Source of the DNA: an uncultured virus (IMG/VR IMGVR_UViG_3300015608_002806) | Lineage: Duplodnaviria; Heunggongvirae; Uroviricota; Caudoviricetes | Direction: 5' to 3' (one strand) | DNA: 64,000 bases | Virus record (IMG/VR): IMGVR_UViG_3300015608_002806 | In this document: in pieces, positions 23,112 through 63,385 of the stretch | How positions within the stretch are numbered: position 1 is the stretch's first letter | How the letters are laid out: the number at the start of each line of letters is the position of its first letter | The notes under the pieces: model-generated | Seen by the model: the letters and a program-made list of their open reading frames with translations, nothing else | Database searches by the model: none | What the model was told of the DNA's origin: nothing | Made by a program: the position numbers and the translations under genes

Positions 23112-23124
23112 TTATGCCTTTTAA

Positions 23125-23652: not shown

Positions 23653-23653
23653 T

Positions 23654-28493: not shown

Positions 28494-28501
28494 TTTACCT
28501 C

Positions 28502-40305: not shown

Positions 40306-41763
40306 ATGCCAAAATCTTTAAAACTTTTTAATAAAAAAATTGAATTTGCAAAAGACAATAATTTAACAATATTAACAAAATTTAATGATTACATCAATAA
40401 TCGTCAAAATTTAGATATATTGTGTAACAATTGCAACAAAGAATTTAAAAGAACGTGGGATTCATTGTACGAAAAGAAAAGAATCAAGTGTCCATGGTGT
40501 CAAACAGATAAAAAAAATTGCAATGGAAAAAAATTAAATGAAGAATTTATTGAAAAAGCAAATTTAATTCACAATAAATATTATGATTATTCTTTGGTTG
40601 AATATAAAAATAATCATGAAAAAGTTACAATAATATGCCCCATTCATGGAAAATTTCAACAAAATGCAATTCATCACATAAATGAAGGAAAGGGCTGTCG
40701 TGAATGTGGTTACAAATTTTTATCAAAAACCTTTGCCTTCACAAAAGATAAATTTATTGAAAAAGCAAATGAAATTCATGGAAATAAATATGATTATTCA
40801 GGTATAAATTATACAAATTCTAAGACAAAAATACAAATTTATTGCAATCAATGTAAAAAATATTTTTGTCAAATGCCATATTCTCATTTATTTGGAAAAG
40901 GATGCAAAAATTGTATGTACAAAGGTTCATCATCATCTGAAAAAGAAATATATGATTGGCTTTCAACAATATACAAAGATAAAATTGAAAAAAACAATAG
41001 AAATATAATTTCCCCTAAAGAAATTGACATTTATTTACCAGATAAAAAATTTGGAATTGAATACAATGGTCTTTATTGGCATTCTGAAATTAATAAAAAT
41101 AAAAAATTGCACATCAATAAAACAATCGAATGCAAAAAACAAAATATTAATTTGTTTCATGTTTTTTCTGATGAGTGGATCAATAAAAAAGAAATTATTA
41201 AGTCCATGATTGCTCACCGCATTGGATTAACTCAAGAAAAAATACATGCAAGAAAGTGCTCAATTCGACAATTAACAAAAAAAGAAACAAATGATTTTTT
41301 TAAAGACAATCACATTTCAGGACCAACTTCATTTACACTCGCTTATGGCTTAATCATTAATAATGAGATATGTTCAGCCATTTCATTAAGGGAGCCATTT
41401 CATAAAAAATATAAAATTAAAAAATATATAGAAATTGCAAGATTTGCAAATAAAATCAATTCATGTGTTGTGGGTGGATTTGATAAACTATTGAACAATA
41501 TTATTTTGAATATTAAAAATAAATATAGAGGAATTTTGTCTTATGCTGATTTGAGATTTGGAGATGGTGCAGTTTATTTAAAATCAGGTTTTAATTTAAT
41601 TGGACAAACACCAATTGATTATTGGTACACTGATTTCAATAAAAGAGAAAATAGATTTAAATATAAAGCTTCAAATGGAAAATCAGAATCCGATGTAGCG
41701 AAAGAAAATAATGTTCACAAAATATATGGATGCGGTTCCAATATTTATATTTTAGATTTTTAA
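40306..41763 (+). CDS. Free-standing putative homing endonuclease (zinc-ribbon repeats, PD-(D/E)xK-type domain, Hef-like C-terminus)
   Basis: Repeats FIEKA..IH..KYDYS...Y....K..I.C; EIDIYLPDKKFGIEYNGLYWH; IHARKC, EIARFA, SYADLR. Confidence 0.8.
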   Translation: MPKSLKLFNKKIEFAKDNNLTILTKFNDYINNRQNLDILCNNCNKEFKRTWDSLYEKKRIKCPWCQTDKKNCNGKKLNEEFIEKANLIHNKYYDYSLVEYKNNHEKVTIICPIHGKFQQNAIHHINEGKGCRECGYKFLSKTFAFTKDKFIEKANEIHGNKYDYSGINYTNSKTKIQIYCNQCKKYFCQMPYSHLFGKGCKNCMYKGSSSSEKEIYDWLSTIYKDKIEKNNRNIISPKEIDIYLPDKKFGIEYNGLYWHSEINKNKKLHINKTIECKKQNINLFHVFSDEWINKKEIIKSMIAHRIGLTQEKIHARKCSIRQLTKKETNDFFKDNHISGPTSFTLAYGLIINNEICSAISLREPFHKKYKIKKYIEIARFANKINSCVVGGFDKLLNNIILNIKNKYRGILSYADLRFGDGAVYLKSGFNLIGQTPIDYWYTDFNKRENRFKYKASNGKSESDVAKENNVHKIYGCGSNIYILDF

Positions 41764-45166: not shown

Positions 45167-46138
45167 ATGAATTTAAAAGAAATTTTCAAATCAAAAGATA
45201 TTGAGGATTTGTCTTATTTTAGACCGTCCAATCTTTTGGATTTGAAAATATATCCAGCCTATGGTAAAAAATATGGAAATATTTATATAGAACCAATAAA
45301 ATCATCTTTAAAACAATTTCCCAATACAAATTTCTCTGCTATTAATTTTGTTGTTGATTCATATATGTCATTATACAATGATATTAAAAAATCTTGTTTT
45401 GAAGGAAAAATATCAAAAACAAGCATGTTTAATATTTCAAATTTATCTATAAATAAAGCATATGTTTCGCCATTATCATATTATGATAACATATTGAATA
45501 TAATATTTTCAGATTTTTTTAAATTTTATAAAAATATAGATTCATGTATTAATTTTTTTGATTCATTTTATCAGTTTGTATTAAATAATAATATAGATTT
45601 TACAATTTATTCTTGTTTAGAAACATTTTATATCGATATATTTTCTTCTGGTCTTGCTATATCATTTTTATCACCAGATATTGATTATTTTGATTTTTTT
45701 AAAGATCAAAATTATCCATATTTTAATCATTTATGTAAAAAATATAATTTTATGATATCCAAAGATAAACCAAATATACTGATTTTTAAATTAAATAAAG
45801 ATTATTCATATGTGGACTATCAAGATATTAACAATACTTATATTTCATATTTAAACAATGTTTTTAAAACTTATTGGAACAAATATGTTAATACTTTTAG
45901 TGAAAAAATAGAATTTAAAGATAAAAATTTTTATATAGATTTATATAAATTTTATACATTTTTATTAAAATGTAGATTTAATGAAATATCTCGCATTGAA
46001 AATATAAACATAACAAATATTTCTGAATTTTATAAATTATATTCTATATTGGGTTATTCAAAAACAATGAATTTATTAAATACTGCTCGCGAGACCAAAA
46101 CGATTCCATTAATGACGGGCCTTGACGACCAAGGCTAG
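45167..46138 (+). CDS. Hypothetical protein
   Basis: 323 aa ORF. Confidence 0.55.
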   Translation: MNLKEIFKSKDIEDLSYFRPSNLLDLKIYPAYGKKYGNIYIEPIKSSLKQFPNTNFSAINFVVDSYMSLYNDIKKSCFEGKISKTSMFNISNLSINKAYVSPLSYYDNILNIIFSDFFKFYKNIDSCINFFDSFYQFVLNNNIDFTIYSCLETFYIDIFSSGLAISFLSPDIDYFDFFKDQNYPYFNHLCKKYNFMISKDKPNILIFKLNKDYSYVDYQDINNTYISYLNNVFKTYWNKYVNTFSEKIEFKDKNFYIDLYKFYTFLLKCRFNEISRIENINITNISEFYKLYSILGYSKTMNLLNTARETKTIPLMTGLDDQG

Positions 46139-47222
46139 CGAATTTACTTGTTCATCCGTGGTCGAGCACAGGGAAACCAAATTGAGCTGGTTGCCCAATT
46201 TTCATACCAATTCAAGTGGTATTGAATATATGGGTATTTATGCAAATTCTTATTATATAAACAACATATGTCCACCACATCTAAAAAAAGATTTAAGTAT
46301 ATTTTATAATTCCATTGTAAATCAATTTACAGCAATTACTGATGCCGGAATAAATCCATTAAATAATAATGTTTTAATGTGTATTCCTCATCATATCATT
46401 GAATCTTATCAAAATTTAATTACTGAAATAAATAATCATGTATTTTTATCATTTGAAAAACCTAATGATTATGATTTTATTTTTTTATTATTAAAATATT
46501 TATCAAAATTATCCAACAAACCTCTTAATATTAATAATAAAGAATTATTACAACAATATGGTAATTATATTGAACTTCATCCCTTTACAAAAACAGGAAG
46601 ATTGTCTTGTGTTTATAAAACTTTTCCGATTCTAAATTTAAAAAAAGAAGACCGAATTCATATTGTTCCGAATAATTCATTTTTTTTTGAATTGGATTTT
46701 AATGGAGCAGAAATACGAACAATTTTTGCTTTAGCTGGTCTTGAACAACCTCAAGAAGACATATATCAGTATATAGCTAGAGAGTTTTATAATAATTCAA
46801 TATCAAGAGAACAATGTAAAAAAAATACAATATTAAATTTATATAAAGGCGATAATAATTTTCATGAATTGTCATCAATAATTAATTTTTCATCTTTAAA
46901 AGAAAAATTTTTTTATGAAAATTATTTAATAACACCATTTGGTAAAAAAATAGAATGTAATATTGAACATTTTATAAATTATTTGTGTCAATCAACAAGT
47001 GCTTATAATTTATTTATTTCAATGATGAAATTACAAGATTTTTTAGTTAAAAAAAAATCATATGTAGCATTTGTGTCACCTGATTCTATAATCATAGATT
47101 ATCATGATGACGATATTGATTTAATTACAAAAATTACTGATGTATTTGCAAATACAGTTTTAGGAAAATTTGTTGTTAACAAAAAGATAGGATATAATTT
47201 TTTTGAAATGGAGAAAATATGA
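46122..47222 (+). CDS. Short family A DNA polymerase-like protein (start uncertain)
   Basis: TKTGRLS, motif A LDFNGAEIR, motif B REQCKKNTILNLY, NYLCQSTSA, motif C VSPDS. Confidence 0.75.
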   Translation: MTTKASEFTCSSVVEHRETKLSWLPNFHTNSSGIEYMGIYANSYYINNICPPHLKKDLSIFYNSIVNQFTAITDAGINPLNNNVLMCIPHHIIESYQNLITEINNHVFLSFEKPNDYDFIFLLLKYLSKLSNKPLNINNKELLQQYGNYIELHPFTKTGRLSCVYKTFPILNLKKEDRIHIVPNNSFFFELDFNGAEIRTIFALAGLEQPQEDIYQYIAREFYNNSISREQCKKNTILNLYKGDNNFHELSSIINFSSLKEKFFYENYLITPFGKKIECNIEHFINYLCQSTSAYNLFISMMKLQDFLVKKKSYVAFVSPDSIIIDYHDDDIDLITKITDVFANTVLGKFVVNKKIGYNFFEMEKI

Positions 47223-47657: not shown

Positions 47658-48446
47658 ATGTTCATTCTTATTGGTGACAAATTAAAATCATTAAACATAA
47701 ATGGTTTAAAAATTCATTCTTTTAATTCTGAAAAAATTCCTCTTTTTAAGACAATTGAAGAATGTGAAAAGTGGTTCATTGTTAATGATCCATATTTTTT
47801 TTCATCAAAAGATGAAATATATAATGTTGTTGTTTATGGAGGAGATCCATTGTGTGGCTCTGTTTTGTTTTTAGCAGAAAAATTTAAAGATAAAAAAATA
47901 AATATAATTTATCTATTTCAAAATAAATATAGCAATAATTTAACAGAGCTTAACCATAAAATAACTGTAAATATCTTGCAAGAATATGCAAGATCTGGTT
48001 GTTTTGAATCAATATATTTAATTGATTTGGATGTAATAATAAAACTATATTCAAATTATCCAATTAATAAATTTTCAGTGATTTATGATCAAATCATTGT
48101 TGATCTTTTAAAATTTATTGAATGGGCATCAAGCAATCCATCTTGTATTTACGGTGAATCGTATGACATATTGGAAATAAATAAAATACGAACAATTTCT
48201 TTTGTCTTTTTTGATAAAAAGGAATCAATTCCTCTTTTCAATTTAGAAAAATCCTCATTATCCGAGGATAAATTTTATTTTTTGTTTACCCAAAAGGAGC
48301 TTGACGACAAAAATGACGTCATTACTATAGCAGAGGAAAATATGAAAAATATTTCCAATAAAAAATACTTTGGGATTTATCTTGGTGATAACGTAAGAAG
48401 TTATCATTTTTGTGTAGGTTGTTCTAATTTAATTCAAAAATTTTAA
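47658..48446 (+). CDS. Possible highly diverged tubulin/FtsZ-fold protein
   Basis: VVYGGDPLCGS at the T4-loop-like position, INIIYL, ILQEYARSG.FESIYLID; lies upstream of SSB. Confidence 0.35.
   Translation: MFILIGDKLKSLNINGLKIHSFNSEKIPLFKTIEECEKWFIVNDPYFFSSKDEIYNVVVYGGDPLCGSVLFLAEKFKDKKINIIYLFQNKYSNNLTELNHKITVNILQEYARSGCFESIYLIDLDVIIKLYSNYPINKFSVIYDQIIVDLLKFIEWASSNPSCIYGESYDILEINKIRTISFVFFDKKESIPLFNLEKSSLSEDKFYFLFTQKELDDKNDVITIAEENMKNISNKKYFGIYLGDNVRSYHFCVGCSNLIQKF
48301..48328 (+). promoter_or_regulatory. Candidate sigma70-type promoter for the SSB/recA operon
   Basis: TTGACG-N16-TACTAT. Confidence 0.45.
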
Positions 48447-48467: not shown

Positions 48468-49430
48468 ATGAATTTACAAGACTTAATTTCAAAAACAAAA
48501 CTTAACATTGATCAACTAAAAGAAACTAAAAAAGATGATAAAAAAATCATTCTTACGCCTGATAGATGGCAACCAGATGTTGGTAAAACTGTTTTAAGAT
48601 TTCTAACCTCTGATGAGGAATATGATCTTAAAAGAGATATGTGGTTTAGATTAGTTAATGTTCATTTTTTTAGAAAAAAAGTTTTCTTTTGTTTAAAAGA
48701 AAAAGGACACAAATGTCCAATTTGCGAACACGGTTGGGCTGAATACAATCGTCTCAAAGATTTTAATAAAAATCTACCAGATGACAAAAAAGATAGATCT
48801 TATTCTAAATTTCTGCCATCACAAAGAGCTATCTGTAAAGTTCTTGTAAAAAGATATTCTGCTGATGGCACAGCAAATCCAATTGATATTGAAGCAATGG
48901 AAACAAATGAATTTGGTCAACCTCAAGTTAAATTGCTTGATCTATCAAAATCAATTATTGACGAAATCAATAAAGCATATGTATTCAATCCAGAATACGG
49001 CGATATCACAAGTATTGATCAAGGTTTTGATTTTAATCTTTTGAAAGAAGTTAAGAAAAAAGGTGCTGCTTCTGCTCAGTCTTCAATTTCACTAACAGCA
49101 TTCAGATCTAATTCTCCTGCAATTAGCAAACATGTTATTTCTATGACAAATGAAGATCAATTTGTTGCTGCATATATGAAAATGACAGAACTGTCTCCAA
49201 GAATGTCTGATAGATTTGATGAAGTTACTCATGCTGAATGCATTCAAATGCTTGAAGAGCATTTGTCAGATATGAAAAATTCTGAAGCTGAATCAGAAAG
49301 AGGTGGAGCATCTGAATCATCAGAATCAGATGATTCAAATTCTTCACAAGATTCAGATTTTGTCCCTGGCAAAGATAGTAAATTTGCTGCAATTGCAAAT
49401 AAATTCAAAACAAATTCTAGCAATAGCTAA
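48468..49430 (+). CDS. Single-stranded DNA-binding protein, T4 gp32-like
   Basis: W.P..GK..LRFL, H...C......CPICE Zn site, YGDIT....GFDF, acidic Ser/Asp tail. Confidence 0.8.
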   Translation: MNLQDLISKTKLNIDQLKETKKDDKKIILTPDRWQPDVGKTVLRFLTSDEEYDLKRDMWFRLVNVHFFRKKVFFCLKEKGHKCPICEHGWAEYNRLKDFNKNLPDDKKDRSYSKFLPSQRAICKVLVKRYSADGTANPIDIEAMETNEFGQPQVKLLDLSKSIIDEINKAYVFNPEYGDITSIDQGFDFNLLKEVKKKGAASAQSSISLTAFRSNSPAISKHVISMTNEDQFVAAYMKMTELSPRMSDRFDEVTHAECIQMLEEHLSDMKNSEAESERGGASESSESDDSNSSQDSDFVPGKDSKFAAIANKFKTNSSNS

Positions 49431-49437
49431 GTAACTT

Positions 49438-49485
49438 AAAATTCCTGGATATATGATTTTTTTGTATATCCAGGAATTTTTTTTT
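49438..49485 (+). terminator. Hairpin terminator/attenuator between SSB and recA
   Basis: Perfect 16-bp inverted repeat AAAATTCCTGGATATA / TATATCCAGGAATTTT followed by a T run. Confidence 0.75.
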
Positions 49486-49494
49486 AGGAAAAAT

Positions 49495-50595
49495 ATGTCA
49501 AAAGAAAAAGAAACAAACAGACAGCTTTCAATTGATGAAATTAAAAACATTGTAAATAAAAAAGCTGGACAATCTGTCGCGGCCACATTCAATGAATCAA
49601 AATTATTGGAGGTTCCATATTGGATCTCAACATCATCACGATGGCTTGATTCTATAATTTGCAAAGGTAAAAGAAGTGGAATCCCAGGTGGGCACATTAC
49701 AGAAATAGCTGCTGTAAATGGTGCTGGTAAAAGTTTTTTGGCTCTAATGATAGCAAAAAATGCTATGAAAATGGGCATTAAAGTTGTTTATTTTGATGCA
49801 GAAGGCGGTGTTGATAAAGATTTCGTTTCAAATTGTCAAATAAATATGGATGAAATAATTCATATTCCAGTTCAATCAATGGAAAAAATGTTCAATATAA
49901 TTGACAATCTTCTCTCTAATACATCTGAAAGATATTTGTTTATTTGGGATTCATATGCTGCAACGCCATGCGAAAAAGAAATTGAAGGAGAATTTGATCC
50001 ATCTTCACATATGGCTGTTGGACCTAGAGTAGCAAATTTAGCTATGAAAAAATTATTGATTCCCCTTCTTGAGAAAAAATCAACACTGATTGTTTTAAAT
50101 CAAATCCGAGACAATATTGGAGCAGACAAGTGGACTCTTTTAAAAGAGCCATATAAAGTTCCAGGCGGTAATCAATTAAAACATTGCTACACATTGAGGC
50201 TTTGGTTGTTTGTTGGTCAAGCAAAAGACGATGCCATTATTGATTCAACCCAAGCAAAAATTGGTCACAATGTTACTGTTAAAATCAAGAAATCACGCCA
50301 CGGTACAGAAGGAAGAAGATGTAAGTTGTCCTTCCTTTGGGGTTCCACGGTGAATAAGATTGCCGATGAAGAGTTGTGGATGGAAGCTTTAGAGGGCTGT
50401 GCAGATATGCAACAAGGTGGTTGGAATAAACTTGTTGTAAATGGTAAAGAAGTTTCCTTTAGAGCGTCAGAATGGATGGAAAAACTTAAAGATAAGGACT
50501 TTAGAGCTAAAGTTGACGAAATATTTGATAAGCATTTGTTAAATTTCACAGGTCAACCTGAAGTTGTTGCAGAAGATGTGGAAGAAGAAGAGTAA
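49495..50595 (+). CDS. recA: RecA/UvsX-like recombinase
   Basis: WISTSS..LD, GIPGG.ITEI, GAGKS, YFDAE, IWDS, LNQIR, PGG; start MSKEK after AGGA. Confidence 0.9.
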   Translation: MSKEKETNRQLSIDEIKNIVNKKAGQSVAATFNESKLLEVPYWISTSSRWLDSIICKGKRSGIPGGHITEIAAVNGAGKSFLALMIAKNAMKMGIKVVYFDAEGGVDKDFVSNCQINMDEIIHIPVQSMEKMFNIIDNLLSNTSERYLFIWDSYAATPCEKEIEGEFDPSSHMAVGPRVANLAMKKLLIPLLEKKSTLIVLNQIRDNIGADKWTLLKEPYKVPGGNQLKHCYTLRLWLFVGQAKDDAIIDSTQAKIGHNVTVKIKKSRHGTEGRRCKLSFLWGSTVNKIADEELWMEALEGCADMQQGGWNKLVVNGKEVSFRASEWMEKLKDKDFRAKVDEIFDKHLLNFTGQPEVVAEDVEEEE

Positions 50596-50605
50596 AATTA
50601 AAAAA

Positions 50606-51622
50606 ATGATAGATGATAATAGTTTACCAATGGCTCGGAAAAATAAAGTAATTATTTTTGATGGAAATAATTTATTTTTTTCGTGCTATGCAGCCAATGA
50701 GACAATTAATTCCAACAATGTTCATATTGGTGGTATAATTGGCTCATTGGCATCTTTGCAAAAAATTTGCATTGATGTAAAACCACATGAAATATTTGTT
50801 GTTTGGGATGGGAAAGGTTCTTCGAATAAAAGAAAAAATTTAAATGAAAATTATAAACAAGGAAGAGTTGCCCCAAAACCATATAAATTAAATAGAAATT
50901 TTCAATATGAAAACGAAGAACAAGAAGCTCAGAATCGCAGATGGCAACAAGCAAGATTTATTGATATATTAAATTATTGTCCAGTCACACAAATAATTGA
51001 ATCTGGAGTTGAGGCTGATGATATCATTTCTTGGATGACAAGAAATTATAACCATGATGGTATAAATATCATTTATTCTAATGACAAAGATTATCTTCAA
51101 TTAGCAAATGACAACACTATTGTTTATAGATTTACAAAAAAAGTTTTTATGACCAAACAGGACGTTATTGATGAATATGATGTAATGCCTTCAAATATGG
51201 CTTTAGCAAGAGCTATAGAGGGAGATAAATCAGATAATTTAATTGGTGTCAATAGAGTTGGTTTAAAAATTTTAAATAGATATTTTCCTGAATTAAAACA
51301 AAAAGAAGATATAACATTTGATCAATTTTTTGAAATGGCAAATAAAAAATATCAATTAAGAAAAGAATTAAATTGTCTTAAAAATATTGTTGAATCACGT
51401 CAATTGATTGAAGATAATTATAAAATTATGCAATTATATGCACCATTAATAGATGCAAAAACTTCAATTTCTATTGAAAATACAATTAAAGAAAAAAAAT
51501 TAGGATTTAGTTTAACAGCATTTAATTTGCAAATTATGAAAGATGGAATGAGATATTCTGATTTTATTAATTTGTGTGAACATTTTGGTAAAATTGTAAA
51601 TCATTCAAAGTTTAAAGAATAG
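50606..51622 (+). CDS. 5'-3' exonuclease/flap endonuclease (T4 RNase H-like)
   Basis: IFDGNN, VVWDG, YKQGR, EADDII, SNDKDYLQL, GDKSDNL.GV..VG.K. Confidence 0.9.
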   Translation: MIDDNSLPMARKNKVIIFDGNNLFFSCYAANETINSNNVHIGGIIGSLASLQKICIDVKPHEIFVVWDGKGSSNKRKNLNENYKQGRVAPKPYKLNRNFQYENEEQEAQNRRWQQARFIDILNYCPVTQIIESGVEADDIISWMTRNYNHDGINIIYSNDKDYLQLANDNTIVYRFTKKVFMTKQDVIDEYDVMPSNMALARAIEGDKSDNLIGVNRVGLKILNRYFPELKQKEDITFDQFFEMANKKYQLRKELNCLKNIVESRQLIEDNYKIMQLYAPLIDAKTSISIENTIKEKKLGFSLTAFNLQIMKDGMRYSDFINLCEHFGKIVNHSKFKE

Positions 51623-51694
51623 TACACTAATTAACATACAAATTTCATAAAATGGCCATTGTAACATGTGGTCATTTTTCATTTTAAGGAAACC

Positions 51695-53038
51695 ATGAAA
51701 GAAACTACAAAACCAACGTTTTCGAAGTATGGATATTCTTTTCAAGAACAATTACTAAAACTTTTAGTTCTTGAAAAACCATTTTGCGATCAGATGATGG
51801 AAATATTAGATGTTTCATATTTTGAGACAGAACCACATCGAGTATTTTGCAAAATTTTATTTAACTACAAAGAGCAATACAAAACACATCCAGCAATTCC
51901 AACACTTGAAACAATAATTAACACTCAAACAAAACTCGACAACATAAACACTTTAACACAAGTTAAATCATTATTAAGCTCAATGGCTTCTTCTGAGGAT
52001 ATCAAAGATTCAGATTTTATAAAAGAAAAATCATTACAATTTTGTCGAAAACAAAAAATTAAAGAAGCAATGCTTGTGTCAATTAAATCATTAGAAGATG
52101 ATGATTTTGATTCAGCTCATTCCAAAATTGATGAATCATTTAAATTGGGTCTTGATAATAATGTTGGTCATGAACATGCTGATGATGTTGATGAAAGATA
52201 TAAAGAAAATATAAGAAAAGTTGTTCCCTATCCTTGGGAGTGCTTAAATAAAATTACAAAGGGTGGTGTGGGCGCTGGAGAAGTTCATGTTGTATTAGCG
52301 CCAACAAATGGTGGAAAATCTTTAGCTCTTGTTGATTTTGCAGCAAATTCAGCTAGAGATGGATATAATATTATTTATTACACTTTTGAAAATCCAGAAT
52401 ACGATATTGGACAAAGAGCTGATGCTTATTTGACACAGATTCCAATAGAACATCTTCCAGAACACAAAAATGAAATTAAAGATTTTTTAAAAAAAATGTC
52501 TGGTAAATTGATTATTAAAAGTTATCCAATGCATTGCCATACAATTAGAATGATTGAAAATCATTTCAATCGAGTTAAAGCAAAAGGTATTAAAATTGAT
52601 GCTATTGTAATTGATTATGCTGAATTAATGATCCCATCTGATGGGTCTTCTGGATTGGATGGTGAAGTTAAAGTTATTAGTGATACAGTATCATTTGCAC
52701 AAAGATACAATATTCCTGTATTGACCGCAGCACAAGGTAATCGTGATGCAATTGATGAAGATGTAATTACTCTTAAACATGTTCAGGGCGCTTATAAAAA
52801 ATTTGGACCAATTCATTTTGTTTTAACGTTGTCGCAAGCTGGTAATGCCTTTGTTGCCAAAAATCGTATTGGCAAGGCAGATTTAACATTTCCTATTGTT
52901 AAAAATGGAGAAATAATGACACTTGAAATTAAATCTGTTTATTCTGATTCTGGTTTTTCTAGTGTTAAAAAAGAAATTGATCCCAAACAGGCATTGCAAA
53001 ATTTTATAACAAAACAAAAACTACATTCAGTAAAATAA
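51695..53038 (+). CDS. Replicative DNA helicase, DnaB/gp41-like
   Basis: APTNGGKS, YTFE, IVIDYAEL, TAAQGNR, AKNRIG. Confidence 0.9.
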   Translation: MKETTKPTFSKYGYSFQEQLLKLLVLEKPFCDQMMEILDVSYFETEPHRVFCKILFNYKEQYKTHPAIPTLETIINTQTKLDNINTLTQVKSLLSSMASSEDIKDSDFIKEKSLQFCRKQKIKEAMLVSIKSLEDDDFDSAHSKIDESFKLGLDNNVGHEHADDVDERYKENIRKVVPYPWECLNKITKGGVGAGEVHVVLAPTNGGKSLALVDFAANSARDGYNIIYYTFENPEYDIGQRADAYLTQIPIEHLPEHKNEIKDFLKKMSGKLIIKSYPMHCHTIRMIENHFNRVKAKGIKIDAIVIDYAELMIPSDGSSGLDGEVKVISDTVSFAQRYNIPVLTAAQGNRDAIDEDVITLKHVQGAYKKFGPIHFVLTLSQAGNAFVAKNRIGKADLTFPIVKNGEIMTLEIKSVYSDSGFSSVKKEIDPKQALQNFITKQKLHSVK

Positions 53039-53050
53039 AGGAATTAAAAA

Positions 53051-54013
53051 ATGGCACTTTTAGATAAACGAGAGGTTTATTCTCCCTTTGAATATCAAGA
53101 AGCTTATGATTTTTGGCTCAAACAACAACAAGCACATTGGATGCACAATGAAATTGCAATGGCTTCAGATATAAATGATTGGAAATTGAATCTTTCAGAA
53201 AAAGAAAAAAATTTAATTGGAAATATATTAAAAGGATTTGTTCAATCTGAGATTTTGATTGCAAATTATTGGTCTCATTTAATCACTCAATGGTTTCAAA
53301 AGCCTGAAATTTGTATGGCAGCAAATTGCATGGCCAACATGGAAACAATACATCAGGTTGCTTACGCATATCTTAATGAATCATTAAATTTGTTAGACTT
53401 TGATGCTTTTTTGTATGAACCAACAATTCAGGCAAAACTATCAAAATTGGTAGAGCCAAAAAGCAAATCAATTGAAGATATAGCTCTTTCAATTGCTGTA
53501 TTTTCTGGTTTTGCAGAAGGTGTTCAATTATTTTCTTCCTTTGCTATTCTTTTAAATTTTTCAAGATTTAATAAACTAAAAGGCGTTGGACAAATTATAA
53601 ATTTTTCAGTAAAAGATGAAAGCTTGCATTCTCAATTTGGTTGTTGGTTATTTAATCAATTAATTAAAGAATATCCGCATATTTGGACTGATGAATTGAA
53701 GAAAAAAATATATGACGCTGCAAGATTGACTGTTCAATTAGAAGATGACTTTATCGATAAAGCTTTTGAATTAGGAAATGTGGATGGATTATCAAAAGAA
53801 GAAATGAAAGTTTTTATCAGAAATCGTGCAAATATTAAATTGATTGATCTTGGATTAAAAACTAATTGGAAAAATTTAGATAAAGAAATGTTGAAAAAAA
53901 TGGATTGGTTTGACTTTATGACAACTGGTGTGCATCAAGTTGACTTCTTTGCTGCTCGCGTCACAGACTATTCAAAGGGCGTGGTTGATTTTGATCAAAT
54001 ATGGGGAGAATAA
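53051..54013 (+). CDS. nrdB: Ribonucleotide reductase class I beta subunit
   Basis: METIHQVAY, EGVQLFSSF, DESLH, DFFAARVTDYSKG. Confidence 0.95.
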   Translation: MALLDKREVYSPFEYQEAYDFWLKQQQAHWMHNEIAMASDINDWKLNLSEKEKNLIGNILKGFVQSEILIANYWSHLITQWFQKPEICMAANCMANMETIHQVAYAYLNESLNLLDFDAFLYEPTIQAKLSKLVEPKSKSIEDIALSIAVFSGFAEGVQLFSSFAILLNFSRFNKLKGVGQIINFSVKDESLHSQFGCWLFNQLIKEYPHIWTDELKKKIYDAARLTVQLEDDFIDKAFELGNVDGLSKEEMKVFIRNRANIKLIDLGLKTNWKNLDKEMLKKMDWFDFMTTGVHQVDFFAARVTDYSKGVVDFDQIWGE

Positions 54014-54018
54014 ATACA

Positions 54019-55743
54019 ATGAATAATTTACCTGATTGGATGACAGAACAAGCTTATTCAATGCTTAAAAGTGGATATTTGTTAGAAAACGAAGAACCTC
54101 TTGATATGTATAAAAGATTAGCAAATGCATATAAAAAAATTGCTTTATCATTGCGTGAAAACAATGAAAACATTAATGTTCTAGAAATAGAACAAAGATC
54201 CAATAGATTATATGAATACATGAAAAATAATTGGTTGTGCCCAGCAACACCAGTTTGTTCTAATTTTGGTACAGAAAGAGGATATGGTATCAGTTGTTAT
54301 GGTGGAACTATAGAGGACAGTATTACCGCTATTGGACAAGGTGTCCATGAATTAATGATGCTTTCAAAAAATGGTGGCGCCATGGGTATAGATTTCAATA
54401 ATATAAGACCAAGAGGTGCTGCCATCCAAAATGGCAAGAACGGACACTCAGAGGGTGTTGTTCCATTTATTAAAATATTTGATTCAGCTATACTTGCAGC
54501 AAATCAAGGTTCAACCAGAAGAGGAGCAGCATCAGTTTCTTTATTTTGGAATCATGGTGACATTCATGAATTTTTAAAAATTAGAAGACCTCAAGGCGAT
54601 GTAAATAGACAATCATTAAACTTACATCATAATGTTTTTCTTGATGATGAATTTTTTGAAAAACTAGATAAAGGGGATTCAAAAGTAAGAGAAATTTGGA
54701 AAGAAATTTTAAAAACACGTCTAGAAACAGGCGAACCATATTTGTCATTTTACAATAATATTCAAAATAGACGCCCAGAATGGTATGTAAAAAATAATCA
54801 TTTTGTCAAATCACAAAATTTATGTCAAGAAATTTCACTTTTTTGTGATGAAAAACATACATTTGTTTGTTGTTTATCTTCTGTTAATTTAGCCAGATAT
54901 GATGAATGGAAAAATCATTCATTGTTCATTGGTGATTGTATTCACTTCCTTGATTCTGTTATGGAAGATTTTATTTTTAAATCAAAAGATGTCCTTGGTC
55001 TAGAAAAAGCTAGAAGATTTGCTATATACAGCAGAGCACTTGGATTGGGTGTTTTGGGATGGCACACATTGCTACAAAAAAACAATATGCCATTCGACAC
55101 ATCGTGGAGTGTAATGAAGCTTCAAGCTGAGATTTTTTCTAAAATTGAAAGAGAAACAATTGATGCATCAAAAGAATTGGCTGTTCTGTTTGGAGAACCA
55201 GAGCTTTTGAAAGGATATGGATTAAGAAATTCACATTTGCGCACATGCGCGCCTACATTTTCTAATTCAAGAATTTCAGGTGGTGTTTCTGAGGGAATAC
55301 AACCAATTGTTGCCAATGCCCAAACAGACAAAACAGCAAAGGGAACATTTCTTGTAAAAAATAGACAATTAGAAAATGTTTTAAATCAAAAGTACAATAA
55401 AAACATAGATGAAGTGTGGAAGTCAATCATTATTAACGAAGGATCTGTTCAACATTTAGATTTTATGTCCTCTGAAGACAAAGAAATATTTTTAACAGCA
55501 AGAGAAATTAATCAATTCAATATAATAACACAAGCATCGCAAAGACAGCAATTCCTTGATCAAGGACAGTCAATAAATTTATTTTTCCCAGCTAATGTAG
55601 ATCCTAAGTATTTTCATAAGGTTCATATCGAGGCATCAAAAACTCTTGAAAGATTGTACTACTGTCGTTCTACTTCTGTGCTTAAGGGCGATGTTGCATC
55701 TAGATATTATGATGAAAATTCATGTAAATCATGTGAGGGATAA
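54019..55743 (+). CDS. nrdA: Ribonucleotide reductase class I alpha subunit (no ATP cone)
   Basis: PATPV.SN, ISC, NQG.TRRGA, NLCQEI, VCCLSS.NL, APT.SNS, LYY, C-terminal CKSCEG. Confidence 0.95.
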   Translation: MNNLPDWMTEQAYSMLKSGYLLENEEPLDMYKRLANAYKKIALSLRENNENINVLEIEQRSNRLYEYMKNNWLCPATPVCSNFGTERGYGISCYGGTIEDSITAIGQGVHELMMLSKNGGAMGIDFNNIRPRGAAIQNGKNGHSEGVVPFIKIFDSAILAANQGSTRRGAASVSLFWNHGDIHEFLKIRRPQGDVNRQSLNLHHNVFLDDEFFEKLDKGDSKVREIWKEILKTRLETGEPYLSFYNNIQNRRPEWYVKNNHFVKSQNLCQEISLFCDEKHTFVCCLSSVNLARYDEWKNHSLFIGDCIHFLDSVMEDFIFKSKDVLGLEKARRFAIYSRALGLGVLGWHTLLQKNNMPFDTSWSVMKLQAEIFSKIERETIDASKELAVLFGEPELLKGYGLRNSHLRTCAPTFSNSRISGGVSEGIQPIVANAQTDKTAKGTFLVKNRQLENVLNQKYNKNIDEVWKSIIINEGSVQHLDFMSSEDKEIFLTAREINQFNIITQASQRQQFLDQGQSINLFFPANVDPKYFHKVHIEASKTLERLYYCRSTSVLKGDVASRYYDENSCKSCEG

Positions 55744-56492
55744 TGAATAATAAAAAATTAATAATATTTGATTTAGATGGAACATTAGCAGAATCAAAAC
55801 AGAAAGTTTCTGAAGAAATGTTGATTAATATTATTTATTTATTAGAAAAATATCAAGTTGCTGTAATTTCTGGCGCTAAAATGCAACAATTTAATGAACA
55901 ATTTTTAAATAATTTAATTAAATTAACTGTTAATTTACATATAATTAAAAATTTGCATATTTTGCCGATTTGTGGTGCTGAATATTTTAGATTTGATGGT
56001 GAAAATTGGCAAAATATCTATAAAGAACATTTTTCAAATGAAGAAAAAGATAAAATTATCTATATTTTAAATAGACATACAAAAAAATACCAATTTTGTG
56101 GTATTGACAATCAAATAGAGGATAGAGGTGGTCAAATAACATGGTCAGCCCTTGGACAACGTGCTCATCCTTCTGTTAAGAAATTGTGGGATCCAAAAAT
56201 GGAAAAAAGAATTATTCTTAAAAATGATATTTCTAAAGATTTACCAGATTTTGAGGTTAGAATTGGTGGCTCGACATCTATAGATATTACAAAAAAGGGA
56301 ATAGATAAGAGTTTTGGGTTAATAAAATTAATGGATATTTTAAAATTTAATAAATCTGATTGTTTATTTTTTGGTGATGCTTTGTGTGATGGAGGAAATG
56401 ATTATCCTGTTAAAAATATGGGTATTGAGTGTGTTGAGGTTGTGAATTACAAAGATACAATTTTAAAACTGGAGCAATTACAAATATTATGA
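55743..56492 (+). CDS. HAD-IIB hydrolase, phosphomannomutase-like
   Basis: FDLDGTLAES, IEDRG.QIT.SALGQ, IGGSTSIDIT, FFGDA...GGNDYP. Confidence 0.85.
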   Translation: MNNKKLIIFDLDGTLAESKQKVSEEMLINIIYLLEKYQVAVISGAKMQQFNEQFLNNLIKLTVNLHIIKNLHILPICGAEYFRFDGENWQNIYKEHFSNEEKDKIIYILNRHTKKYQFCGIDNQIEDRGGQITWSALGQRAHPSVKKLWDPKMEKRIILKNDISKDLPDFEVRIGGSTSIDITKKGIDKSFGLIKLMDILKFNKSDCLFFGDALCDGGNDYPVKNMGIECVEVVNYKDTILKLEQLQIL

Positions 56493-56719
56493 TTTTTAAA
56501 AAGAAAAAACAAAAAAAAGATATTATTTTTGATATGTGTATGACTTATCGGCATGATTTTGGTCTTTTGTTAACAGATAAAGAAAAGGAATTGTTCCCAT
56601 TTGCTGGTGGTTTGATAAAACAAGAACAAGAACGTATATATAATGATATGAAACAAATTTTTGAAAATTGTATTGAACAATATATCGATAAAAAAAAGGT
56701 GGATTTGGATGGAACTTAA
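56489..56719 (+). CDS. Hypothetical protein
   Basis: MCMTYRHDFGL; coupled to neighbours. Confidence 0.55.
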   Translation: MIFKKKKQKKDIIFDMCMTYRHDFGLLLTDKEKELFPFAGGLIKQEQERIYNDMKQIFENCIEQYIDKKKVDLDGT

Positions 56720-57185
56720 AAAAGCAATTAATTCTGATTGGGGTACGCCCAAACACATATTTGATTTGGCTGAAAGTTTGTTTGGCAAACATGATTTAGA
56801 TGTTTGTGCTGAACCTGGATGGTCTATGTGTTCTAATTTTATTGATAAGTCACAAGATTGTCTTTCTGATAAAACAGATTGGAATGGACAAAATATATGG
56901 TGTAATCCACCATATGATGCAAAAACATTGACAAAATTTACAAATAGAGCAATTTTAGAATCTAAAAAAGGTAAAAAAATAACCATGCTCGTTCCTGTAA
57001 AATCAGAACAGGCATGGTTTCATCAATTAATTGATGCAAATTGTGGATTTTATTTTATTAAATCAAGAATTATTTTCAACAGAAAAAATGGAAACAAAGC
57101 AAATAATGCTGGTTTTCCTTCTGTTTTTATCAGAATTGATAATAATTTAACAATTCCCACTATTAAATGGATAAAAATTCCATAA
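56709..57185 (+). CDS. Phage DNA N6-adenine methyltransferase (Dam-like family)
   Basis: W.TP, DLDVCA, WCNPPY, MLVP....WF, RI.F. Confidence 0.85.
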   Translation: MELKKAINSDWGTPKHIFDLAESLFGKHDLDVCAEPGWSMCSNFIDKSQDCLSDKTDWNGQNIWCNPPYDAKTLTKFTNRAILESKKGKKITMLVPVKSEQAWFHQLIDANCGFYFIKSRIIFNRKNGNKANNAGFPSVFIRIDNNLTIPTIKWIKIP

Positions 57186-57204
57186 TTATGGTGGAGATTT
57201 GTAA

Positions 57205-57975
57205 ATGTCTAAAATTAAAGAATTTGGCGCATGGGCTGGTGTTAAGGCTTTAAAAAATCCTGATAAATATATTAAAATGATTAAATCAATTGGTTTGGAC
57301 AGAATTGATTTAATGATTAACGATGGGACCAAATCTGGTCCCTTTCATATTTATTTGCCAGAAAATGATTTAATTAATGTTTTGAAAAAATTTAAGTCAT
57401 CTGGTATTAATGTATCTATAACCACATGGGCAAAACCCGAAAAGTCGTGGATCGATGGTATGGTCACGGTGGCCCGTATAGCAGTCGCCGCTTCAATTGA
57501 GGAGATTGTTCTCGACCTAGAGGAGCCATGGGTTAACCCGTTGAAGCCAAAAAATCCTATGGAAATTTTCGCGTGGACAGCTGGCCTTATTGGCACATTA
57601 CGAGTAAACTACAATGGCAAAATAGCTATTGCTCCAATTGTTTATTGCAACAAAAAAGTATTGGATCATGCTTTTGGATTGGTTGATACAATAATTCCAC
57701 AATGTTATTCAACATTATTAAATGTTCCTGGTTCTGGTCATGATGGTTCATTGGAATCCGCAACAATGCGCATATTTTCATCTTATAAAAAAGAGCTTGT
57801 CATGGGCGCTGCTGCATGGAATCTCAAGGGTGCTTATGGCTACGTTAATCCTAACGACGCTCTAGAGGCTTCTTTAAAAGCAGTTGTGGATCTTGGTGTT
57901 GAGCGCATCAGATATTGGAGATTTGAGTTTCTTTCTGATGACTTTGTTAAAATTATAAAAAAATATAAGAATTAA
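57205..57975 (+). CDS. Hypothetical protein, possible TIM-barrel glycoside hydrolase
   Basis: VLDLEE, IIPQCY and YW motifs; GGAG RBS. Confidence 0.45.
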   Translation: MSKIKEFGAWAGVKALKNPDKYIKMIKSIGLDRIDLMINDGTKSGPFHIYLPENDLINVLKKFKSSGINVSITTWAKPEKSWIDGMVTVARIAVAASIEEIVLDLEEPWVNPLKPKNPMEIFAWTAGLIGTLRVNYNGKIAIAPIVYCNKKVLDHAFGLVDTIIPQCYSTLLNVPGSGHDGSLESATMRIFSSYKKELVMGAAAWNLKGAYGYVNPNDALEASLKAVVDLGVERIRYWRFEFLSDDFVKIIKKYKN

Positions 57976-57980
57976 ATAAA

Positions 57981-58619
57981 ATGATCATAAATACATTATA
58001 CAAAACAGATTCAATAATTGATGGGATTAAATACAATCCACCATCGGAAATAATTGATTATGGATATGCAATTGATTTAGAATGGAGAAATAAAAATGGT
58101 GATTTGCATAATGAAAATGGTCCTGCTGTTATTAGATATTATGAAAATGGAAATGTTCAATACAAAGAATGGTATATAAATGGTAAACGTCATAATAAGA
58201 ATGGTTCTGCTATTATTGCATATTATTCAAGCGGAAATGTTAAATATAAAGAATGGTTTATAAATAATAAACAACACAACGAGAATGATCCTGCTTTTAT
58301 TGAATATGATCGAAATGGAAATTTTCAATATAAATTATGGTATATAAATGGTAAATTACATAATGATAATGGTCCTGCCGTTATTGGATATAATGAAAAT
58401 GGAAATGTTTCATATAAAGAATGGTATGTAAATGGTGAACATCATAACAAGAATGGTCCTGCTCGTATTGCATATTATGAAAATGGAAATGTTAAATATA
58501 AATCATGGTATATAAATGGTCAATGTCACAACGAGAATGGTCCTGCTTATATTGAATATGATCAAAGTGGAAATATAATAAAACAAGAATATTGGGAAAA
58601 TGGAATAAGAATTAAATAA
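57981..58619 (+). CDS. MORN-like repeat protein, copy C, 212 aa (5 internal 28-aa units plus terminal unit)
   Basis: 84-bp tandem units; 5' end nearly identical to copy B. Confidence 0.85.
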   Translation: MIINTLYKTDSIIDGIKYNPPSEIIDYGYAIDLEWRNKNGDLHNENGPAVIRYYENGNVQYKEWYINGKRHNKNGSAIIAYYSSGNVKYKEWFINNKQHNENDPAFIEYDRNGNFQYKLWYINGKLHNDNGPAVIGYNENGNVSYKEWYVNGEHHNKNGPARIAYYENGNVKYKSWYINGQCHNENGPAYIEYDQSGNIIKQEYWENGIRIK

Positions 58620-58620
58620 A

Positions 58621-59032
58621 ATGATCATAAATACACTTTACAAAACAGATACGTTAATTGATGGAATTAAATACAATCCACCATCAAAAATAAATAATTA
58701 TGGATATGCAATTGTATTGACATGGAAAAATGAAAATGGTCANNNNNNNNNNNNNNNNNNNNNNNNNNNNNNNNNNNNNNNNNNNNNNNNNNNNNNNNNN
58801 NNNNNNNNNNNNNNNNNNNNNNNNNNNNNNNNNNNNNNNNNNNNNNNNNNNNNNNNNNNNNNNNNNNNNNNNNNNNNNNNNNNNNNNNNNNNNNNNNNNN
58901 NNNNNNNNNNNNNNNNNNNNNNNNNNNNNNNNNNNNNNNNNNNNNNNNAATGGTCCTGCTTATATTGAATATGATCAAAGTGGAAATATAATAAAACAAG
59001 AATATTGGGAAAATGGAATAAGAATTAAATAA
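58621..59032 (+). CDS. MORN-like repeat protein, copy D (spans assembly gap 58743-58948)
   Basis: Family N-terminus before the Ns and family C-terminus after them. Confidence 0.7.
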
Positions 59033-60835: not shown

Positions 60836-61814
60836 TCATTTATATTGTGTGTGGGTCATTAAGTTTTTGAAAAAATAATTTTTATTATTTTGTTCAATTG
60901 GTTCGTTAGTTAAACAAATTAAACATTGATTAAATCTGTTTAATTTTACTTTTAATTTTGTATTATTTGAAATGTACGCAATGTAAGTAAGATTATTCCA
61001 GATATTATTTAAAATAAATATGTCAATCATGTAATATATTTTTATTAGAATTTGAATCTTTTTCAAGACATTCAGTTAGTTTTTCAATAGAATAAAATAA
61101 TTCTCCTGTTGAAATATTAATTACTTGAAATTCAATTAAAGGATTAATTTCTAATTCATATTTATTATTTGTAATATTTAATAAATTTATTACTGATTGC
61201 AAATTTTTATTTGTTTTGTTTTTTGAAATTATTTTAAACATTTTTAGCCTTTCATTTATAGCGCTTCATTATTTTTGTAGCAGATTTATTTTCTTTAGCT
61301 TTTAAAAATGATTTTTTAAAAAAACCAAATTTAAATACATTATTTTTATAAAAAGCTAAATAAAATTGAGTGTTTGAGCAATAATAAGAAATAATACAAT
61401 TTGGGTCATACTTACAAATATCAACATTAATCATATTTGTGAATAATTTCATTTTGAAGGTGAAATGTTTTAGATCTCATTGTAAAATTCAAAAATTGAC
61501 AATAGTATAAATAATATGAATCATAATTTTGTGTATTTGTTGCACGAACTGCAATTATTTTGTTTTTATTTATGTAATAATCACATATTAAATTTGCTTT
61601 ATTAAGTGTTAGTTGAATCATTTTATTCCTTGTATTTTTTTAATATCCAAATTTTATTATTATAATTTTTTATTAGTTTTACAATATTATTTTTTTCAAC
61701 ATAAAATATTTTATTTTGTACATTATTAGAAACCAATACGCTTAATACAAGATTTTTGTTTATTTCAAAACATACTTTGGTGTATAATTTTTTTCTATTT
61801 TGTACACAAATCAT
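60836..61814 (-). CDS. Run of five small overlapping hypothetical ORFs (63-76 aa)
   Basis: ORFs 60836..61066, 61023..61241, 61252..61452, 61427..61621, 61623..61814 tile the interval on one strand. Confidence 0.4.
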
Positions 61815-63385
61815 TTGTTTTCTTTTGTGATTTCTGTTATTGAGCCATTTGATAAAATTAACATTTTAACAACATTTACTGCATTCTCTATTGCGTTAGA
61901 AATACACATTGTTACATCAATAATTCCTGACTCAAATGCATTTACTTTTTTGTTATTTTTTAAATCGACAGTTTCTGATTTTGAAAGATTTTCATAAAGT
62001 TTTTTGTCAATATTTGAATTTTCACACAAAATATTATATGGTTGTCTAAGACAATCTTGCCAAATTTGTGAAAATTTATTTATATATTGTGTTTGTTCCA
62101 AAAGATCAGCAACATATTTTAAAGCACAACCTCCACCGGGCAATATTCCTGATTTAACAGCAGAGGCACAGGCTGAAATTGCGTCTTCTGTTCTATGTTT
62201 TCTTTCAATTCTATCCAATTCTGAGTTTCCACCAACATAAAAATAACAAGCCAGTGATGACAAATTTGTAATTCTTGAATTTAATTTTAACAATTCAGTT
62301 TCATCTTCATTATTTTGCAGTTCTGATTTTAATTGTGAAATTCTTAAGTCTATAGAGCCTTCTTTTGATGCTCCATTAACCAATAAAGATTTTGTTCTTG
62401 AACATTCAATTTTTTCACAAAATCCCAAATCATCAAAACTAAATGATGAAATCGGTAATGAATTTTCTTTTCCAAAAACAGTACCACCAACAAAAACACC
62501 AAGATCATCAATTAGATTAATTCTATCTTTGCCAAAAATTGGAATTTGAATTGGAATAAATTTATTTATTGATTCTTTATCTGTTGATAATTTTATTATT
62601 GTTGAAAGGATCTGATCATTAAAATCGTGACCAATTATAATAATCTTTTTAGGAATAGACATACATTGTTTTAATACATTTAACAAATCATTGGAATATT
62701 TAATAGATTCATTTATTATTAAAATTGCACAATCTTCAATTTTTAAAATTGCTTCATTGATTGGAAGCAGTTTACTCGTTGCCAGCCCACCAGAAACCCT
62801 AAATCCATCCGTTATTTCAATGTAGGATTTGTCATTGGTCGTCTCGCGTATCTGTACCATGCCATCGGCACCAATTGCCTCAATTGATTTGGAGACCAGA
62901 TCTGCCAATTCTGAATCACCATTTGTAGAAATCATTGCAACATTTTTAAGATCATTAATTGTTTCAATTTCTTTTGAAGAATTAATTAAAAGATTTTTGA
63001 TAATTGGCAATGTTTCATCAAAGTTTTTTGCTATTTCAACAGGATGAATTCCTTGTTTTTTCAATTCAAATGCTGCTTTTAGTAGAAAATAAGACAAAAT
63101 TGATGTGCTGCTTGTACCATCGCCCGCAACCTTTGCGGTTTTTTCAGCAGCTTTTCTGATAAAATCAGCACCAATTGATTCAATTGGATCTTCCAGGTCA
63201 AAAAATTTAGCAACAGTGTATCCATCTTTTGTTACAATTGGTAATTTGTCTTTTTGTTTTAAAACAATTGTTCGACCATTTGGCCCAAATGTTTTAGATA
63301 CAACTTGAAATAATTTTTCAACACCTGAAATTATTTTTTTGTCAAAATCTTCATCTAAATTAATTTGCTTGATTGTATTTTGCAT
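61811..63385 (-). CDS. groEL: GroEL-like chaperonin
   Basis: TFGPNGR, VTKDGYTVA, AGDGTSS, EDAI.A...A...GILPGGG, GIID. Confidence 0.92.
   Translation of the reverse strand: MQNTIKQINLDEDFDKKIISGVEKLFQVVSKTFGPNGRTIVLKQKDKLPIVTKDGYTVAKFFDLEDPIESIGADFIRKAAEKTAKVAGDGTSSTSILSYFLLKAAFELKKQGIHPVEIAKNFDETLPIIKNLLINSSKEIETINDLKNVAMISTNGDSELADLVSKSIEAIGADGMVQIRETTNDKSYIEITDGFRVSGGLATSKLLPINEAILKIEDCAILIINESIKYSNDLLNVLKQCMSIPKKIIIIGHDFNDQILSTIIKLSTDKESINKFIPIQIPIFGKDRINLIDDLGVFVGGTVFGKENSLPISSFSFDDLGFCEKIECSRTKSLLVNGASKEGSIDLRISQLKSELQNNEDETELLKLNSRITNLSSLACYFYVGGNSELDRIERKHRTEDAISACASAVKSGILPGGGCALKYVADLLEQTQYINKFSQIWQDCLRQPYNILCENSNIDKKLYENLSKSETVDLKNNKKVNAFESGIIDVTMCISNAIENAVNVVKMLILSNGSITEITKENK

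Follow-up and report, generated by a model that had tools for sequence, protein, structure and literature searches.

Short GC-rich islands at the silent sites of an AT-rich T4-like phage fit recombination or repair patches better than DNA-wrapping sites

The IMG/VR virus record IMGVR_UViG_3300015608_002806 contains a 64-kb stretch of DNA from an uncultured phage (hereafter the window), in which short patches within unrelated genes switch to codons ending in G or C. The window has a GC content of 26.6% and contains a single run of 206 N at 58743-58948. Over its 63 open reading frames (ORFs), the length-weighted GC contents of the first, second and third codon positions (GC1/GC2/GC3) are 0.375/0.291/0.147. 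It encodes a gp23-type major capsid protein (38447-40177; Pfam Gp23, 4.4e-61), a UvsX/RecA-like recombinase, a gp32-like single-strand-binding protein, a DnaB-like helicase, both ribonucleotide reductase subunits, a Dam methylase, baseplate wedge proteins, a gp55-like late sigma factor, GroEL and a peptide deformylase. Because of this gene content, the source is a T4-like phage. The GroEL protein is present on 22 contigs, the longest of which is 181,815 bp; the genome is therefore at least 182 kb, and the window makes up about a third of it at most. The capsid protein shares no more than 45.5% identity with any of 50,697 phage records (an uncultured huge phage), followed by Flavobacterium phages at 40.5%, and no nucleotide match to the window was found. 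Sequence words of 49400-58700 occur in at least 20 sequencing runs from 12 studies, mostly of wastewater.

The first-pass annotation had drawn attention to 57441-57560, reporting a GC content of about 50%, with about 19 of 33 degenerate codons ending in G or C, compared with about 2 of 20 just upstream. Recounting gave the same GC content (0.50) and the same 19 G/C-ending codons, out of 36 degenerate codons rather than 33. The upstream count is indeed low, at 3/20. The window's own amino-acid-specific codon usage predicts 4.1 G/C-ending codons among the 36 (z 7.8). The sequence TTCAATTGA was confirmed at 57492, and a 120-bp GC scan places the island within a wider stretch of GC ≥0.42 at 57375-57642. 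Contigs from three other studies bridge the focal island with 1, 2 and 4 differences, and it is therefore not an assembly artefact.

Comparison of the GC3 peaks with synonymous-shuffle nulls bore out the expectation that they would exceed them. Six of the 63 genes gave p ≤ 0.003 in 300 within-gene shuffles, and the maximum over the whole window was 24/40 G/C-ending codons, compared with 23 in the shuffles. In 500 amino-acid-conditioned simulations, peaks with z ≥ 3.5 numbered 2.95 on average and 10 at most, compared with 22 observed, and eight 40-codon scan positions exceeded 4.98, the 95th percentile of the simulated maximum z. A two-state GC3 hidden Markov model (HMM) called 8 segments, compared with 0.06 per simulated window. 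These correspond to six loci, after merging of two adjoining calls at 46088-46196 and setting aside of the call at 50564-50590, where a TTG-started ORF overlaps the 3' end of the UvsX gene. The silent GC-rich islands are real. We refer below to the 10 islands with z ≥ 4.85 in the 40-codon scan (Table 1), among which the peak upstream of the capsid gene lies slightly under the 4.98 percentile.

Of the 13 patches listed at first pass, seven reach z > 5 (those starting at about 57441, 15180, 32575, 44685, 46085, 50285 and 62770), and four are weaker (8105, 29385, 38660 and 54300; z 3.1-3.9). The remaining two (22330 and 34800; z 1.2-1.6) are GC-rich at codon positions 1 and 2 only; amino-acid composition alone accounts for them, and they were rejected as silent islands. 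The islands do lie on either coding strand, and the genes that carry them are unrelated, encoding the capsid protein, UvsX, GroEL, an epimerase and four products whose function is unknown. A spacing of about 7 kb between the first four patches depended on patches that are weak or non-significant at GC3, and the gaps between the 10 strongest islands are irregular (1.4-17.4 kb).

Table 1. Islands, weaker peaks and associated features of the window
Feature	Coordinates	Strand	Details
Focal GC3 island	57436-57546	+	Codons 78-114 of the 256-aa gene 57205-57975 (+), family unknown; HMM 20/34 G/C-ending; 40-codon z 8.3
GroEL island	62759-62899	-	Gene 61811-63385, codons 163-209; HMM 21/46; z 7.0
UvsX/RecA-like island	50284-50397	+	Gene 49453-50595, codons 278-315; HMM 17/35; z 6.1
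Gene-junction island	46088-46196	+	Two adjoining HMM calls, 9/15 and 16/24
gp23 major capsid gene, island in 3' part	39848-40006	+	Gene 38447-40177; HMM 21/49; z 6.0
Island in 147-aa gene	32570-32746	-	Gene 32540-32983, codons 80-138; HMM 24/57; z 5.7
Scan window in epimerase/dehydratase gene (Polysacc_synt_2)	15178-15297	-	Gene 14998-16002 (Pfam); 16/40 vs 4.6 expected; z 5.7; no HMM call
Scan window in 853-aa gene	44686-44805	+	Gene 42604-45165; 16/40 vs 5.0 expected; z 5.3; no HMM call
Weaker peak, gene 3' end	38222-38341	+	Gene 37373-38422, directly upstream of the capsid gene; 14/40 vs 4.4 expected; z 4.9
Weaker peak, gene 3' end	48261-48380	+	Gene 47658-48446; 14/40 vs 4.4 expected; z 4.9
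Further peak in capsid gene	40052-40171	+	40-codon scan
Free-standing homing endonuclease gene	40306-41763	+	485 aa; phrog_559 HNH endonuclease, 1.8e-97; phrog_3339 homing endonuclease, 5.4e-77
Contig X5 bridging the focal island	57355-57949		1 difference
Contig X8 bridging the focal island	57230-57897		2 differences
Contig X6 bridging the focal island	57339-57750		4 differences

The islands are narrow in length, as first proposed, the six HMM loci measuring 177, 159, 109, 114, 111 and 141 bp. A power simulation of the HMM recovered islands implanted at lengths of 60, 75 and 90 bp in 64%, 81% and 94% of trials; the lack of short and long islands thus suggests a characteristic size, with n = 6 only. 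Island edges are sharp at the codon level. Averaged over seven islands, the GC profile has bins of about 0.5 on either side of a dip to 0.29-0.39, but the codon strings of single islands are not consistently bipartite; the earlier description of two GC-rich arms around an AT-rich centre is thus not confirmed.

In the conserved genes, the islands coincide with segments that are also GC-rich at positions 1 and 2 (GC12), giving an overall GC content of about 45-53%; the GroEL island covers the conserved GADGM and DGF..GG motifs. GC3 excess and local GC12 are correlated over the window as a whole (rho 0.34; within genes 0.20). G/C endings make up 44-67% in the islands, compared with 1-23% of codon families in the background, and are thus genome-rare codons. 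Third-position G rises from 4.9% to 19% and C from 6.2% to 27%, with A falling from 0.43 to 0.27 and T from 0.46 to 0.28. Among the island codons are ACG for 8/15 Thr (2% in the capsid gene), GCC for 6/15 Ala and GAC for 12/17 Asp. The avoidance of CpG is eased, with an observed/expected ratio of 0.72 versus 0.33 in the background for C2G3, and of 1.32 versus 0.44 for C1G2. The capsid gene, in which GC3 is raised overall (0.27), favours TTC, TAC, AAC, ATC, GGT, CGT and ACT, with third-position G at just 6%. The island codons are unlike this preferred set, and translational optimisation was rejected as their explanation. By codon-usage likelihood, the islands resemble any genome with a GC3 of 0.4-0.55, and the choice between G and C in four-fold families does not separate the phage's own usage from that of its relatives (likelihood ratio about 2).

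CpG is strongly depleted in the whole window (observed/expected 0.44, versus 1.24 for GpC), and among relatives the ratio climbs with GC content, from 0.5 at 28% GC to about 1.0 at 50%. The tetranucleotides ACGT, GTAC, TCGA and CTAG are low across the window (observed/expected 0.28-0.43). The first three, at about 0.3, are avoided in the window and not in the islands (4 each, versus 4.9 expected), a difference that is confounded by codon usage and was not counted as evidence.

The island at 46088-46196 runs over the TAG stop codon (46136-46138) of the gene at 45167-46138 and into the next ORF (46122-47222), which is PolA-like. Its GC content is about 0.49-0.50 at all three codon positions; a relative with the matching two-ORF layout has AT-rich termini encoding peptides rich in I, K, N and Y. 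The crossing of the stop codon rules out a purely translational cause at this island and, together with the GC richness of all three positions, indicates that the cause acts on the DNA and not on codon choice as such. The upstream ORF encodes 323 aa and the downstream one a C-terminal PolA-like part (weak phrog_17), their ends overlapping in different frames (45167-47222, +). A stretch of the PolA-like ORF, LDFNGAEIR, resembles polymerase A motif A. The same layout is found in L028, a relative of 28% GC (225-2325, -), and strain contigs break at 46335-46509.

We compared the islands with orthologues 36-61% identical to the window's proteins. Over the 37 island columns of the gene at 57205-57975, GC3 is 0.62 in the window, and 0.16-0.22 in three AT-rich orthologues (54-61% identity, from loci of 28-35% GC). 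Over the UvsX island columns it is 0.52, versus 0.16-0.23 in the two orthologues from L001 and L004 (40% identity). GC12 at the island columns of both genes is 0.47-0.53 in these orthologues, versus 0.44-0.50 in the window. Because the orthologues keep GC12 and lack the GC3 rise, the islands are, on these alignments, lineage-specific and not conserved in position, at least at these distances. A homologue of gene 47658-48446 in L004 (806-1603, +), a relative of 28% GC, has an island of its own (14/40, z 5.3), offset about 60 codons upstream of that in the window. Among L001, L003 and L004 (15,000-20,000 codons), non-capsid island calls were confined to one gene, in L004, and there were none in L001 or L003. 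The nearest relatives recovered in alignment and protein scans of IMG/VR and metagenome contigs are 35-61% identical; close relatives were absent from IMG/VR for three genes, and from GTDB genome contigs. Capsid relatives lie in loci of 33-50% GC, and homologues of gene 57205-57975 are also found in contigs of 70% GC.

In the three genes that were aligned, the edges of the islands adjoin conserved residues. In gene 57205-57975 these are T74, W75, P78 and W82, and P112, L113 and K114 (K114 being invariant or nearly so); in GroEL and UvsX, conserved blocks flank both edges. The product of gene 57205-57975 gave no Pfam, PHROG or PDB sequence match. It is widespread, with many invariant residues (W75, D104, E106 and PQ.Y at 165-168), and its identity to relatives (54-61%) exceeds that of the neighbouring gene products (36-49%).

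The focal island also stands out in strain-level variation. A protein 98% identical to the product of gene 57205-57975 (P0001) differs from it at residues 93, 98, 109, 114 and 256, four of which fall within island residues 78-114 (binomial p about 0.002). Run X6 contains two contigs of 412 bp, both covering 57339-57750, one with 4 differences from the window (depth 37.8) and the other with 54 (depth 5.8), and the neighbouring low-depth X6 contigs (records 11-13) are 1.5-3.9% from the window. The variable part of the X6 patch begins at 57375, the same start as the stretch of GC ≥0.42. The segment in which the focal island lies thus occurs in natural populations as sharply different alleles. The X6 population is a mosaic on a larger scale as well, the divergence from the window being 1.9% for one contig (38701-52224) and 12-17% for another, at 52331-52989, whose depth is similar (31 versus 35). 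The abundant X6 strain, which is 1.9% from the window across the 13.5 kb before the helicase gene, is 12-17% diverged within that gene (52260-52989), where it has two stretches of about 70 bp that are unalignably diverged, one of them of the same length as in the window. Some depth bins and loose contig ends adjoin island edges (48269, 54464); with 1098 further loose ends, such coincidences were given no weight.

We tentatively favour the view, with slightly less than even confidence, that the islands are short recombinational repair (gene-conversion) tracts. About 110-180 bp of a gene, sometimes about 350 bp, would be overwritten from, or repaired against, a homologous copy in a heavily recombining phage population. 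Purifying selection would preserve the protein, limiting the foreign look of the tract to silent sites in conserved segments; where the protein is unconstrained, as at the 46.1-kb junction, all three codon positions would become GC-rich. The G and C might come from a template supplied by a GC-richer phage of this family, or from heteroduplex repair that is biased towards G/C at recurrently broken sites. We infer this tract mechanism from the allelic patch at the focal island, the clustering of the P0001 differences within it, the X6 mosaic and the lineage specificity of the islands. It is further supported by a compositional signature distinct from that of the genome at large, the existence of GC-richer kin, the island that crosses a stop codon, and the position of the edges next to conserved residues, where homology-dependent exchange would end. 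The first-pass annotation had offered patchy recombination with GC-richer relatives as one of two alternatives, the other being RNA structure; it is the better supported of the two, and the donor it called for was not found.

Several observations weigh against recombination tracts. Searches for a GC-richer donor behind each island were negative in GenBank phages, in IMG/VR patterns and among 20 relatives: blastn of gene 57205-57975 and two islands against the 50,697 phage records gave nothing or chance-level matches, two pattern scans of IMG/VR returned no match, and third-position identity to the 20 relatives showed no spike above the composition effect. Compared with AT-rich orthologues, the island codons at variable residues show no GC shift in their first two positions, in a test of low power. 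The 54-difference X6 allele is known by its difference count, and may or may not be AT-rich. Elevated divergence confined to the patch is seen for one island, the focal one, and is absent at the protein level for two others: a protein 99% identical to the 853-aa gene product (P0022) has no amino-acid difference within the 44686 island, and the GroEL cluster representative (P0018) is 100% identical, hence without a difference in the GroEL island. Tracts of random length should vary more in size than the islands do (109-177 bp, n = 6). Eight of the 10 islands lie at relative gene positions 0.76-1.0 (post-hoc binomial p about 4e-4, counting the 46.1-kb island as the end of its upstream gene), and simple recombination does not predict such a bias towards 3' parts. 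Gene versions with differences at most of their silent sites should, moreover, recombine inefficiently.

Two further sources of local variation were considered. No second copy of any of the 10 islands was found within the window, the best non-self match being 28 nt at 86%. The variable region of a diversity-generating retroelement was rejected, as there is no template copy, A and T are both depleted, and no reverse transcriptase occurs among the PHROG matches in the 64 kb.

T4-type phages are known for sub-genic mosaicism, with short conversion tracts and co-conversion around the cuts of free-standing homing endonucleases such as Seg and Mob of T4. The islands resemble this situation in that the focal patch differs sharply between near-identical relatives whose flanks match, the population is a mosaic, and one endonuclease gene lies beside one island. 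They differ from it in sharing a G/C direction at silent sites and a narrow size, in that 8/10 have no endonuclease nearby, and in that no donor was found.

Because the narrow size and the 3' bias are not explained by simple recombination, a broader idea is kept alive, possible in our view and clearly less probable than recombination tracts. The islands may be the traces of a DNA-level process of defined size, common to very AT-rich large phages: GC-biased repair at recurrent cuts, or else selection for GC 'clamps' roughly as long as one protein footprint. Their sharp edges and the island that crosses a stop codon are also compatible with this idea.

The first of these processes, taken as an explanation in its own right, is unlikely. 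Recurrent double-strand breaks, for example at the targets of the homing endonucleases of competing phages, would be followed by repeated heteroduplex repair or co-conversion around the cut, which would rewrite silent sites along the length of one tract. GC-biased gene conversion at recombination hot spots has been described for eukaryotes and proposed for bacteria; to our knowledge, it has not been shown in phages. The islands would resemble it as a local, lineage-specific rise of GC at silent sites with the protein unchanged, in a highly recombining genome with an AT-biased background, and differ in that their edges are sharp rather than graded. In favour of break-site repair, the endonuclease gene listed in Table 1, which is the only homing endonuclease gene found in the window and directly follows the capsid gene, lies 300 bp downstream of the capsid island, with the further capsid peak also at hand. 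The focal spot has more than one allele, and judging from the P0001 protein, the codons of residues 98 (E, GAG) and 109 (V, GTT) may each be reached by an A/T-to-G/C change, P0001 carrying the family majority residue. Another point in favour comes from a glycosyltransferase gene (28502-30244, -) split by an intein of about 165 aa (28888-29383; Pfam Intein_splicing and Hint_2). Its N-extein flank (29390-29404) has five successive G/C-ending codons (GAC GCC GAG GGC TTC), two codons before the first Cys of the intein, and the C-extein flank has no comparable run. Against break-site repair, 8/10 islands have no endonuclease-like gene nearby (PHROGs on 63 ORFs, Pfam on 25 flanking or small ORFs), and no cut site is known. 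Any link between the islands and nuclease cutting is putative. In run X5, contig depth over 40702-41368, within the endonuclease gene, is roughly double the depth of the neighbours upstream, suggesting that other genomes also carry copies.

Rather improbable, and a shade more so than break-site repair, is that the islands are selected DNA-level elements, i.e., fixed-size GC clamps or sites for binding or wrapping by a topoisomerase, a nucleoid protein or another protein, written into silent positions. The narrow sizes of 109-177 bp despite the detectability of 60-90 bp islands, the sharp edges, the placing of GC3 islands on segments that are already GC12-rich, with the GC12-GC3 correlation, and the crossing of a stop codon all agree with such elements, as does the near-invariance of the island allele in the contigs of three other studies. 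The first-pass annotation had proposed a DNA-level code overlaid on the coding sequence, with gyrase or other type II topoisomerase sites, or histone-like positioning sites, as candidates. A cause acting on the DNA is upheld by the stop-crossing island, and the wrapping sites are not. The E. coli gyrase motif described in PMC6379681 spans 130 bp and consists of two 47-bp arms, in which G/C content varies in phase (about 10.5 bp), around a 36-bp centre. The islands resemble strong gyrase sites, including the strong gyrase site of phage Mu, in being about 130 bp long and lying inside otherwise ordinary sequence, and differ from them in lacking phasing and symmetry and in being many per genome, compared with one central site.

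Over seven islands and 500 synonymous shuffles, G/C phasing gave p values of 0.95, 0.56 and 0.63 at periods of 10, 10.5 and 11 bp, and the dyad symmetry score was 17.6 compared with 17.5 in shuffles (p 0.51), contrary to what wrapping would predict. No 5- to 8-mer occurs in more islands than in Markov shuffles, in agreement with the original impression that no primary sequence is shared. The candidate motif AATTGAGG, present in three islands, was rejected, since it occurs 5 times in the window with 3.9 expected, which is not significant. The motif TATAAATA, which we take to be the T4-type late promoter, has 28 sites, none of them related to the islands. Nor do the islands show the regular spacing expected of such elements; they are missing at the same codons in the orthologues of two genes and displaced by about 60 codons in a third, and L001, L003 and L004 show the scarcity described above. 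No histone-like or HU-like protein was matched by PHROG searches of the 63 ORFs of the window. Of the arguments for gyrase or wrapping sites, size alone survives. Short patches of recombination or repair agree with the observations better than DNA-wrapping sites do, as a candidate rather than a proven cause of the islands.

It is quite improbable that the islands are clusters of rare codons that locally retard translation, to the benefit of folding, assembly or coupling with the following gene. G/C-ending codons are rare in this genome, 8/10 islands lie in the last gene quarter, and in two conserved genes the silent sites alone are shifted. PMC2833160 describes enrichment of rare codons at the 3' termini of prokaryotic genes, and the islands share with rare-codon clusters the clustering of rare synonymous codons, mostly in the 3' parts of genes. 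They depart from them in that their positions are not conserved in orthologues, position conservation being the criterion of PMC5438181, and in that one of them, at 46088-46196, extends beyond a single reading frame, crossing a stop and being GC-rich at all positions. The highly expressed capsid gene, moreover, prefers C-ending codons in two-fold families, and many island codons may thus be fast.

That the silent sites are constrained by RNA structure, by a small RNA embedded in the gene or by a second, overlapping gene is scarcely credible: GC-rich patches in an AT-rich transcript could fold locally, and antisense ORFs of 138-164 aa overlap two island-bearing genes, but folding z values in eight islands range from -1.47 to +1.69, none significant, contrary to the RNA-structure alternative raised at first pass, Rfam gave no match at the gathering threshold, ARAGORN found no transfer RNA or transfer-messenger RNA genes, and the antisense frames of six genes are no longer than in synonymous shuffles (p 0.09-1.0).

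Two other parts of the window have unusual features. A long sugar-nucleotide block (11975-30244, -) contains four epimerase/dehydratase paralogues, a UDP-glucose dehydrogenase-like gene, HAD genes, and GtrB-like and GT1 glycosyltransferases, an unusual cargo for a T4-like phage. Downstream of the focal gene, tandem paralogous MORN-repeat genes (57981-59032, +) share their first 20-odd residues, the second containing the run of 206 N. In each of the four runs, this region is 10-50 times deeper than its flanks and contains many internal joints, which indicates a repeated, variable family.

The islands are a real, lineage-specific and DNA-level feature of this phage. If they are imported patches, as recombination tracts from a GC-richer relative would be, they would mark recombination below the gene level in an uncultured phage lineage with unusual clarity, and would show the reach of exchange across lineages that differ in base composition. 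If they reflect biased repair or selected elements, silent sites would be a readable map of DNA breakage or binding, of which no description for phages was found in the literature searched; with GC-biased repair at recurrent cuts, nuclease or recombination hot spots could be read from the sequence alone. Either way, the 'silent' positions in the genes of AT-rich phages are not uniform, which matters for host prediction based on codon usage and for recoding experiments.

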